Shown one piece after another: positions 50,922-52,104 of a DNA stretch of 64,000 nucleotides. The stretch's first letter is position 1; every line of letters starts with the position of its first letter. The translations under genes were made by a program, and so were the position numbers. The notes under the pieces were generated by a model that was given only the letters and a program-made list of their open reading frames with translations, did not search any database and was not told the origin of the DNA. Source of the DNA: Dehalococcoidia bacterium (GTDB lineage: Bacteria; Chloroflexota; Dehalococcoidia; Plut-88900); the NCBI GenBank assembly GCA_965197585.1, contig OZ240215.1, positions 2,848,001 to 2,912,000 on the forward strand, written 5' to 3'.

Positions 50922-51869
50922 TTAGCAACTGTGTTTGGGGAGGGGATTCCAAGGGGAATTGTCTCTGATCATGGCGTTAAGGATGGTGAGGAGCTTACGC
51001 ATACAGGCGACGAGGGCAACCTTGCCGGGCTTGCCGGCAGCGAGGAGATGCTCGTAGAAGGCTTTGATAGGAGGGTTATGGGTTCTGGCGGTCATTGTGG
51101 CCATGTAGAGTGCGGATCTGATGTTTGCCCGGCCGCCCCAGATGGAACGTCTTCCCCTATGAGTGCCACTGTCTCTGTTCAAGGGAGCGACGCCGACAAG
51201 GGCGGCGATCTGCTTACGGTTGAGGGAGCCGAGTTCGGGAAGGGAGCCTACGAGGGTGAAGGAGGATACGGAGCCAATGCCGGGGACATCCATGAGGAGG
51301 TTGAGCTTGCCCTTCCAGAGGGAATTGGAGTTAATGAGGTCGTCAATCTCCTTGTCCAGGTCATCGAGTTCCTGGGAGAGGAAGTGGATGTGTTTATGGA
51401 GGCTGGGGAGAAGAGGATCGAGGGCACGCTTGAGGCGAAGGGACTCGGCAGCTTTCATGTCGATGAGCTGCCGTCTGCGAGCGAGGAGGGCCTTGAGATG
51501 GGCTGCTTGAGGGTCTGGGAGAGGGCGGGGCTGGGGCCTGAGGGTGAAGGCGAAGAGGGCGATGGAGTGGGCGTCGATGGCATCGGTCTTGGCCAGTCTA
51601 CCGGTGGAGCGAGCGAAGTCCCTGATCTGCCTGGGGTTCATTACTGCAGTAGGTATCTGATTAAGGCCACACTCCAAAGCTAGGGGCCTCTCGAGGCCGC
51701 CGGTGGCCTCCATGACGATGAGGGTGACATTGAGGTCCTTGGCCAATTGGAGGATCTCTCTGATACCCTCAGCATCGTTGGGATGTCTGGCGGCCTGGTC
51801 TTGGGGGAGGACGTGAAGATCGAGGAACTGACTACTGACGTCGATGCCTATGACGGAGTCTTGACTCAT
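50922..51869 (-). CDS. IS110-family (DEDD) recombinase
   Basis: [53 protein letters not shown]. Confidence 0.95.
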
Positions 51870-52033
51870 GTTATCCCTTTCTTGCAGGTACGGGTTGTTG
51901 ACCCGGGCAACTGTACGGGCTTAGATGAGAGTGGGTGCGGCGGCCCATGCTAAGACTCGGTCTTGAAGGACCACGATTCCTACGGCCTACCGCACCCCGA
52001 GACCCTAACTCTATCACTGCTTCGTCACACAAG
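50924..52033 (-). mobile_element. IS110-family element inserted at the CT core at the edge of a family-B REP
   Basis: Minus-strand junctions GAGGAAT-CT-tgtgtg and cacagttg-CT-AAAGCG; an empty site GAGGAATCTAAAGCG is present at 52145-52159. Confidence 0.9.
51872..52020 (-). ncRNA. Predicted IS110 bridge RNA
   Basis: Two internal loops with guides matching target (AGGAATC / TTAG) and donor (ACAGTTGC / GCAAG), enclosed by stems; ends approximate. Confidence 0.8.
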
Positions 52034-52104
52034 ATTCCTCGCGGGGCCTCGGAATGACATGTAATAACGGAGGTGGGCATGGAGGGATGTGAGTGCGGAG
52101 AGGT

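Follow-up and report, generated by a model that had tools for sequence, protein, structure and literature searches.

The mechanism of RNA-guided insertion in the IS110 group of insertion sequences is already known. In IS621 of Escherichia coli, the 5' guides of the bridge RNA pair with the bottom strand over 8 to 9 nt and the 3' guides with the top strand over 4 to 7 nt, the core being included in each (excerpts of PMC11208160). The insertion of IS110-family elements into repetitive extragenic palindromic (REP) sequences is also in print (Tobes and Pareja 2006, in the reference list of PMC11208160), and ISPpu9 and ISPpu10 of Pseudomonas putida are described, in the excerpts at hand, as multicopy elements, each with all its copies in a single REP or repeated intergenic sequence. 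Here, we analyzed a 64,000-nt stretch of a Dehalococcoidia genome (the window; contig OZ240215.1, positions 2,848,001 to 2,912,000), whose minus strand between 50924 and 52031 very probably is an IS110-group insertion sequence moving by bridge-RNA-guided recombination, as reported for IS621. The locus is a natural example of that mechanism, which it leaves unchanged. In particular, the 162-nt left end would encode an RNA folding into two stem-loops that each contain a large internal loop, and a CT core would be the site of strand exchange by a tetramer of the 315-aa DEDD/Ser recombinase, so that insertion would occur precisely behind ...GAGGAAT-CT within a repeat of about 28 bp present in more than 100 copies.

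The likeness to IS621 (PDB 8wt6) comprises the same two protein domains with aligned D/E/D/D/S-G residues, the CT core, a left-end bridge RNA in which the target loop precedes the donor loop, 5' guides identical to the top strand and 3' guides complementary to it, a right target guide (RTG) with a 4-nt core extendable to 7 nt, and genomic repeats as natural targets, as far as the excerpts of PMC11208160 describe them. The element shows all the sequence-level hallmarks of the IS110 group that could be put to the test. However, the similarity lies at the profile level only (E 1e-36), with 315 aa compared to 328 in the PDB chain, and the element, at 1,108 bp, has neither a noncoding right end nor a stop codon of its own. 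Furthermore, its left guide pairs only with the first core base, its target reads AGGAAT-CT-AA instead of ATCAGGC-CT-AC, and its host is a member of the Dehalococcoidia.

Profile comparisons place the recombinase firmly in the IS110 family. The protein matches Pfam PF01548 (DEDD_Tnp_IS110; 7.6e-22, residues 7 to 154) and PF02371 (Transposase_20; 1.4e-17, residues 190 to 273), and it scores 228.4 bits, against a cutoff of 140, with the NCBIfam equivalog NF033542, "IS110 family RNA-guided transposase." Both sequence features of the IS110 group, a RuvC-like DEDD domain at the N terminus and a Tnp domain with Ser-Gly at the C terminus, are present. The best-scoring solved relative, compared at the protein level only, is the ISCro4 transposase (PDB 9t56; E 1.7e-37), and the match to IS621 has an E value of 1.1e-36; the alignment spans residues 6 to 308. 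The motifs IGID, EATG, KTDxxDA, and SG coincide with those of the solved recombinases, and the predicted catalytic residues are D10, E54, D96, D99, and S234-G235. The residues given as essential in IS621, D11, E60, D102, D105, and S241 (excerpts of PMC11208158), are the counterparts of these motif positions.

The genome, a single contig of 3.43 Mb, carries seven full-length copies of the element (c1 to c7), with identities of 100, 96, 96, 96, 91, 88, and 88%, in addition to three partial matches belonging to more distant elements. Because the seven copies have unrelated flanks, the element boundaries are fixed: in all of them, the similarity begins directly after ...AGGA(A/G)(T/C)-CT and ends at ...GTTG-CT, and the distal flanks are unrelated. 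A CT is found at both ends in seven of seven copies, while a single CT occurs in an uninterrupted paralogue of the target and in the orthologous loci, without any longer target duplication. On the minus strand, the repeat ...GTCATTCCGAGGCCCCGCGAGGAAT-CT (to 52032) is followed by the element, which starts with TGTGTGACG (52031) and ends with ...CACAGTTG-CT (50924), and then by AAAGCGCTTGCCC..., leading into a GIY-YIG gene (Pfam PF01541). At the orthologous loci of the genomes G009 and G010, the CT of the repeat is joined straight to the GIY-YIG gene, with no element in between. In the window itself, a 53-nt direct repeat (50873-50925 and 52100-52152, 89% identical) indicates that the repeat and the start of the GIY-YIG gene were duplicated 119 bp upstream, giving the uninterrupted target paralogue.

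The copies c2, c3, and c4 are mutually 100% identical and occupy three different sites; therefore, the family moved very recently. The window copy forms a singleton sublineage, 96.4% identical to c2-c4, and its open reading frame (ORF) is intact. The same element occurs in the sister genome G006, in six full copies and a truncated one with 83 to 86% nucleotide identity. Altogether, 14 of 14 insertions of this element family (seven in this genome, six in G006, and one in G009) lie in the same repeat, so that no insertion at an unrelated target, of the kind that the first-pass annotation of this DNA would have counted against its own reading, was found. Thus, the comparison of copies defines the boundaries precisely and documents the recent spread of the sister copies; the window copy itself may be active.

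The guides read in the left end (Table 1) follow the geometry that the excerpts of PMC11208160 give for IS621. The left target guide is identical to the target's top strand and hence pairs with the bottom strand, and the donor loop of the window copy carries ACAGUUGC, which matches the right-end terminus plus the core C. When the 162-nt left end was shuffled 200,000 times, the left-target 7-mer and the donor 8-mer occurred together in only four of the shuffles. In addition to the four guides, two putative handshake positions could be noticed. The CA of the target loop is complementary to the donor TG in every row, yet it is invariant. For the handshake base of the donor loop, the focal family has A, with a T at target position 7 in 12 of 14 rows, and the other lineages have G, with a C at that position in 14 of 17 rows (exceptions, G002_A twice and G000_Y once); with two states only on a tree of kin, the handshake pairing is suggestive.

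The structure of the putative bridge RNA was examined in an alignment of 14 distinct left ends, namely, five variants from this genome, two from G006, and seven from IS110 elements of about 50% protein identity (from G002, G010, and two further elements of this genome). RNAalifold returned two stem-loops, each with a large internal loop. Pairs predicted between the left and the right donor guides were removed, since those segments are complementary by necessity. In the 24 remaining pairs, 98.5% of the cells hold standard pairs and seven pairs change on both sides; the covariation score was reached by 0 of 500 column shuffles, and sliding the partners by one to three columns left 35 to 47% of cells paired. 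The outer stem of the target loop (helix 1) contributes 12 pairs, 6 of them changed on both sides, with 97.6% of cells paired, and the seventh compensatory pair lies in the inner hairpin of the donor loop (helix 4), where U-A and C-G are found in seven sequences each. The alignment thereby establishes, as a predicted fold, a conserved two-loop RNA structure. A covariance model built from these 14 left ends (R1) scores 169.8 bits at the left end in the window, by construction.

The RTG changes together with the flank. Considering the 14 focal-family insertions, the RTG core forms four Watson-Crick pairs with target positions 8 to 11 (t8-t11) in 13 and three plus one U.G pair in the remaining one, c6 (UUAG at CT/AG), which is Watson-Crick paired at all seven other positions of t8-t15. 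Three alleles occur: UUAG (n=5), CUAG (n=3), and CCAG (n=6). CUAG always stands beside AG and CCAG always beside GG, while UUAG stands beside AA in four of five cases, the fifth being c6 with AG. In particular, the right guide of G006 is CCCCAG, and every copy there is found at GAGGAAT-CT/GGGG; c2-c4 read CUCUAG and are inserted at CT/AGGAC; (U/C)CUUAG is found in c1, c5, c7, and the only copy of G009, which are inserted at CT/AA. The extended pairing reaches 7 of 7 nt in c7, 6 plus one U.G in c5, and 6 to 7 in G006, and the RTG therefore probably works over up to 7 nt, beyond its 4-nt core. Free sites in this genome number 37 with GG (AGGAATCTGG), 22 with AG, and 13 with AA, and none of its seven copies is at CT-GG; G006 has 14 GG, 5 AG, 3 AA, and 1 GA free sites, and all its copies are at CT-GG. 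This relation between allele and site availability argues against a passive explanation. The three RTG alleles, combined with the same left target guide and donor loop, represent a natural counterpart of a reprogramming experiment.

The same holds beyond the focal family. Six distant IS110 lineages (about 50% amino acid identity) have different loop sequences, each matching its own flanks, and the RTG pairs over 7 of 7 positions in G002_B, G010_A, G010_B, and G000_X. For a quantitative comparison, 11 guide sets and 30 insertions gave 25 distinct cognate guide-target pairs and 250 noncognate combinations. Pairing over the five noncore right-target bases averaged 4.36 in cognate and 1.76 in noncognate combinations, and when the target sets were reassigned among the guide sets, the observed sum was reached in 0 of 20,000 permutations. 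The predicted guides are complementary to target and donor and covary with the target, a pattern that leaves no ambiguity. The first-pass annotation had proposed an IS621-type IS110 element, with a CT core and a bispecific bridge RNA aimed at a host repeat, which the protein models, the compensatory changes, and the guide-target covariation bear out; the four guides lie exactly where it had placed them, and the junction strings and the 315-aa ORF read as it had given them.

Several observations weigh against this reading. With regard to the RNA, a search of the left end against Rfam 15 gave no sense-strand family match, the 3-bp outer stem of the donor loop (helix 3) is invariant and hence offers no covariation evidence, and a promoter scan of the minus strand of the integrated copy detected no sigma-70-like site. 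Folding of the left end, which the first-pass annotation had suggested as a check, succeeded in part: the single-sequence minimum free energy fold is no better than shuffles (z -0.88), and the structure draws its support solely from the comparative analysis. With regard to the guides, one U.G pair occurs in the RTG core among the 14 insertions, the left target guide matches perfectly in 11 of 14 and with one mismatch in 3, both donor guides are invariant in the focal family and hence give no covariation evidence there, and the kinship of the lineages makes the permutation figure overstate their independence. Finally, the window copy is the only representative of its lineage, which leaves its own activity unproven, codon 14 is a stop in the sister copies c5 and c7, and the copy of G009 is broken.

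The last of these points, together with the fact that Logan contigs yielded no circle junction or empty site, are those expected if the locus were a genuine IS110 element that has become an immobile relic, with guide matches recording a past insertion. We consider this doubtful, although it deserves attention: singleton status and decay in the family speak for it, but the ORF of the window copy is intact, the five catalytic positions and four guides are in place, the identity of c2-c4 at three sites points to very recent activity of nearly the same element, and bridge RNAs can act in trans (excerpts of PMC11208160). As for the Logan contigs, which break at the repeats, four sequencing runs (X1, X3, X4, and X19) were examined; five joints were listed, with short sides of 25 to 31 nt at repeat copies, and as none of them represented a right-end-left-end junction or a clean empty site, they are uninformative on circles or excision. 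By analogy with the known elements, the element would form a circle.

It could also be supposed that the guide-like matches are by-products, such as captured target fragments or ends recognized by the protein, and that the recombinase reads the repeat directly. The invariance of the left target guide and of both donor guides within the focal family, taken alone, cannot separate RNA guidance from protein recognition, and the target stem-loop of ISPpu10 has been reported, in the preprint excerpt, to add specificity. Nevertheless, we regard this as very improbable, because the RTG changes with the flank in three alleles, because six distant lineages match their own targets with other sequences in the corresponding loop positions, and because the guides lie in internal loops of stems kept by compensatory changes. 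Moreover, the right-target match is a reverse complement and the left-target match an identity, which fits strand-specific pairing and not a captured fragment. An IS1111-type element, which belongs to the same protein superfamily and has its seekRNA encoded downstream of the recombinase, can practically be dismissed, given that here the structured guide-bearing RNA lies in a 162-nt left end upstream of the gene, that there is no noncoding right end, and that the donor is flanked only by CACA/TGTG and not by the 7- to 17-bp subterminal repeats that accompany long right ends in IS1111 (excerpts of PMC11208160).

Table 1. Positions, in the window, of the insertion sequence, its guides, and neighboring features
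Feature	Positions	Strand	Description or basis
Whole IS110-group insertion sequence	50924-52031	minus	1,108 bp, right-end CT included; target CT at 52033-52032
Left junction, GAGGAAT-CT then TGTGTG	52040-52032 / 52031	minus	Re-read in the sequence
Right junction, ACAGTTG-CT then AAAGC	50932-50924 / 50923-50919	minus	Re-read in the sequence
Right-end donor half, ACAGTTG-CT	50924-50932	minus	Within the last codons of the recombinase
Recombinase gene	50922-51869	minus	315 aa; one long ORF; TAA stop included
Left end encoding the putative bridge RNA	51872-52031	minus	Covariance model R1 and consensus structure; left end counted as 162 nt
Target-binding loop (predicted)	51933-51996	minus	Outer stem 51996-51984 with 51946-51933; guides in internal loop
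Target-loop inner hairpin (predicted)	51972-51969 with 51962-51959	minus	GGTC with GACC; consensus structure
Donor-binding loop (predicted)	51875-51919	minus	Outer stem CCC/GGG 51919-51917 with 51877-51875; inner hairpin 51905-51901 with 51895-51891
Left target guide, AGGAATC	51981-51975	minus	Same sequence as target top strand (left target, 6 nt, and core C)
RTG core, UUAG	51953-51950	minus	Pairs with CT-AA
RTG extended form, GUCUUAG	51956-51950	minus	Guide table
Left donor guide, ACAGTTGC	51914-51907	minus	Equals right-end terminus ACAGTTG plus core C
Right donor guide, GCAAG	51885-51881	minus	CAAG pairs with CT-TG of the circle junction
Putative target-loop handshake guide, CA	51948-51949	minus	Complementary to donor positions 6-7 (TG); scheme of PMC11208158 (excerpts)
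Putative donor-loop handshake base, A	51880	minus	Pairs with target position 7
Candidate extended -10, TG-A-TAGAGT	52008-52016	minus	Consensus reading only
Interrupted copy of the ~28-bp interspersed repeat, ending GAGGAAT-CT	52032-52060	minus	Left target half
Right target half, AAAGC	50919-50923	minus	Runs into the 5' end of the GIY-YIG gene
Uninterrupted paralogous repeat with the exact reconstructed target GAGGAATCTAAAGC	52145-52179	minus	Sequence match
Third repeat copy, inverted (GAGGAATCTAACGC)	50574-50603	plus	Matches the 10 programmed bases
Local tandem duplication, 119 bp	52032-52210 / 50873-50925		Repeat plus first 53 nt of the GIY-YIG gene region
GIY-YIG nuclease gene	50608-50952	minus	Small; starts in the right half of the repeat-plus-flank unit
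IS481-family transposase gene	49547-50603		NF033577 184 bits, below the cutoff of 224; rve domains

A distinctive feature of this family is found at the right end. The recombinase ORF reaches the last base of the element, so that the noncoding right end measures 0 nt compared to 162 nt for the left end, and the left half of the donor corresponds to the last three recombinase codons. It follows that the stop codon comes from the target. In the window copy, TAA is made of the T of the right-end core and the AA of the flank, as the first-pass annotation had recognized, and the AA and AG alleles find a TAA or TAG in this way. The six G006 copies at CT|GG (L013, L018, L022, L026, L030, and L034) continue in frame into the flank, giving 344 to 386 aa depending on the site. 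Annotation of these identical G006 elements would thus yield a different protein at each site and, more generally, as the element itself supplies no complete stop codon for the recombinase gene, gene callers will assign differing C termini at differing sites. Most relatives of about 50% identity carry their own stop before the right end, and on this comparison the missing stop codon is a lineage-specific trait. On a circle, the frame runs through the whole left end (368 aa) and is kept in the focal family. We considered this read-through as a designed extension and rejected it, because most of the lineages of about 50% identity stop before the right end; the predicted 368-aa frame is treated as a consequence of the loss of the right end.

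The length of 1,108 bp is less than the 1,202 bp given in preprint 10.64898/2026.08.14.744561, in the excerpts at hand, for the smallest IS110 element validated earlier. The first-pass description of a compact orthologue is correct in relation to IS621, but it is no novelty: the same preprint (2026) has already presented IS110 elements of 800 to 843 bp, and the small size found here is therefore no record. Those minimal elements are likewise natural and below 1,202 bp. According to the same excerpts they are smaller, with a 201-aa recombinase, whereas in the element described here the two-domain recombinase is full length and the economy is confined to the right end. As a candidate for a compact orthologue, with a length of 1,108 bp, a recombinase of 315 aa, and an RNA of about 135 to 160 nt, from a phylum distant from the characterized ones, and as a natural allelic series of right target guides, the family may be of value.

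A relative in G010 (L036, in G010:C7) provides an observation on self-insertion. Upstream of its recombinase, a 40-nt partial left end stops exactly at the DNA of the left target guide (ATTCATCCT) and is followed by a complete element. It looks like a scar: the element would have inserted into the DNA encoding its own guide, identical to the left target half, and the tandem would then have collapsed. This relative has a fully matching left guide. At the final position of the left guide, members of the focal family have G or A, a mismatch to the core T that possibly prevents self-insertion. We would venture, as a tentative picture to which we give somewhat less than even credence, that the sister copies split the host repeat among themselves by one to three RTG bases, take their stop codon from the target or, with the GG allele, gain site-specific protein tails, and may be blocked from self-insertion by the mismatch of the last left-target-guide base.

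The target itself had been called a host REP in the first-pass annotation, which put it in a "family B" of its own labeling. The repeat is certainly abundant and interspersed: AGGAATCT occurs 133 times and CGAGGAATCT 78 times genome-wide, and 10-mers occur 13 to 37 times against 2.6 to 5.5 expected, i.e., five to seven times over expectation. The copies have a common 28-nt context and share ...CATTCCGAGGCY CCGCG upstream. However, the repeat is weakly palindromic, with a 5-bp inverted ATTCC...GGAAT only and a DNA fold (-2.6 kcal/mol, z +0.76) no better than shuffles. Moreover, a search of its own genome for a RAYT/Y1 gene gave no PF01797 match, a result that, the genome being 91.9% complete, leaves the absence of RAYT unproven; the same search was positive in 6 of 14 control genomes. 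"REP-like interspersed repeat" is thus the safer name from what the sequence offers. In the excerpts at hand, ISPpu9 and ISPpu10 resemble the present element in being multicopy IS110-family elements in one repeat or REP, but their targets are GC-rich stem-loops, that of ISPpu10 being a reported second determinant of specificity, whereas the repeat here folds like shuffles. Furthermore, ISPpu9 carries a downstream small RNA (sRNA), and nothing lies downstream in this element.

Within the window, the 14-mer of the target recurs twice, compared to 0.32 matches expected: at 52146-52159 on the minus strand without mismatches and at 50589-50602 on the plus strand with one. The unused targets proposed near 52145-52159 and 50589-50603 do exist. 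The insertion sequence occupies the gene-proximal copy of the tandem duplication, and the orthologous loci of G009 and G010 have a single repeat. The GIY-YIG nuclease gene is single-copy, no paralogue being found in the genome at E<=1e-5, and no link to the spread of the repeat is drawn.

The repeat appears to be visited by other elements as well. The terminus of an IS481-type element (...TAACACTTACA) abuts the ATTCCGAGG of the repeat copy at 50574. In 194 rows inspected by eye, five repeat copies are preceded by this IS481-type terminus and 11 by a second terminus, ...TGACATCCACA, which indicates that at least two other insertion sequences land in the repeat; in the left flank of c6, such an element and the IS110 element are found within one repeat. 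The orientation of the repeat is also uneven. Genome-wide, CGAGGAATCTRR occurs 41 times in forward and 22 times in reverse orientation; from about 1.14 to 2.59 Mb the plus strand holds most of the copies, beyond 2.68 Mb the minus strand does, and the seven insertion sequence copies follow the local orientation.

With regard to expression, the predicted RNA would be transcribed, and formation of the circle junction may complete a promoter for it. By consensus reading, the hexamer 17 nt upstream of the candidate -10 is TTGCT/T across the circle junction and AATCTT in the integrated copy. Moreover, the GGG of the donor-loop stem is within AAAGGGAUAAC just upstream of the AUG, and therefore the predicted RNA and the mRNA leader overlap. 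In the relatives of about 50% identity (L015-L041; G002 and G010), TTGACT lies close to the right end and TAT(A/C/G)TT occupies left-end positions 3 to 8; counted by eye, the two hexamers would be 17 nt apart on a circle and form a much clearer junction promoter. The focal family lost the right-end hexamer together with the right end. In the RNA run X19, six contigs with 90 to 99% likeness cover the recombinase gene only (9 of 30 bins); these may be DNA carry-over or come from a relative and hence are no evidence of transcription. Two RNA runs labeled as sponge metagenomes contain 0.07 to 0.09 of the sampled words, and no habitat claim is drawn from them.

Finally, the left end led to a small RNA filed in a different context. 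Rfam RF02234 (sX15, a Xanthomonas sRNA) matches 51858-52008 on the plus strand with 41.4 bits (E 7e-5), against a gathering score of 55. Membership of the left end in sX15 is not claimed, since the match falls short of that score and lies on the opposite strand to the recombinase, and it served as a lead. The family covers the same left-end stretch but is filed as an sRNA and not as a bridge RNA. Its locus on pXCV183 (L042, 1879-2037) is described, in the excerpts of PMC3300014, as one of a complementary pair, sX15/asX7. On the strand opposite sX15 (asX7), an IS110-type N terminus (MNGIGIDV...) follows, and R1 matches this strand, which is that of the recombinase remnant, at an IS110 left end on the Xanthomonas plasmid with 43.5 bits (E 5e-10). 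From the sX15 match, the N terminus on the asX7 strand, and the R1 match, it seems that sX15 is the antisense image of an IS110 bridge RNA. Together with the target-dependent C termini of the recombinase, this reading of sX15 may help annotation.

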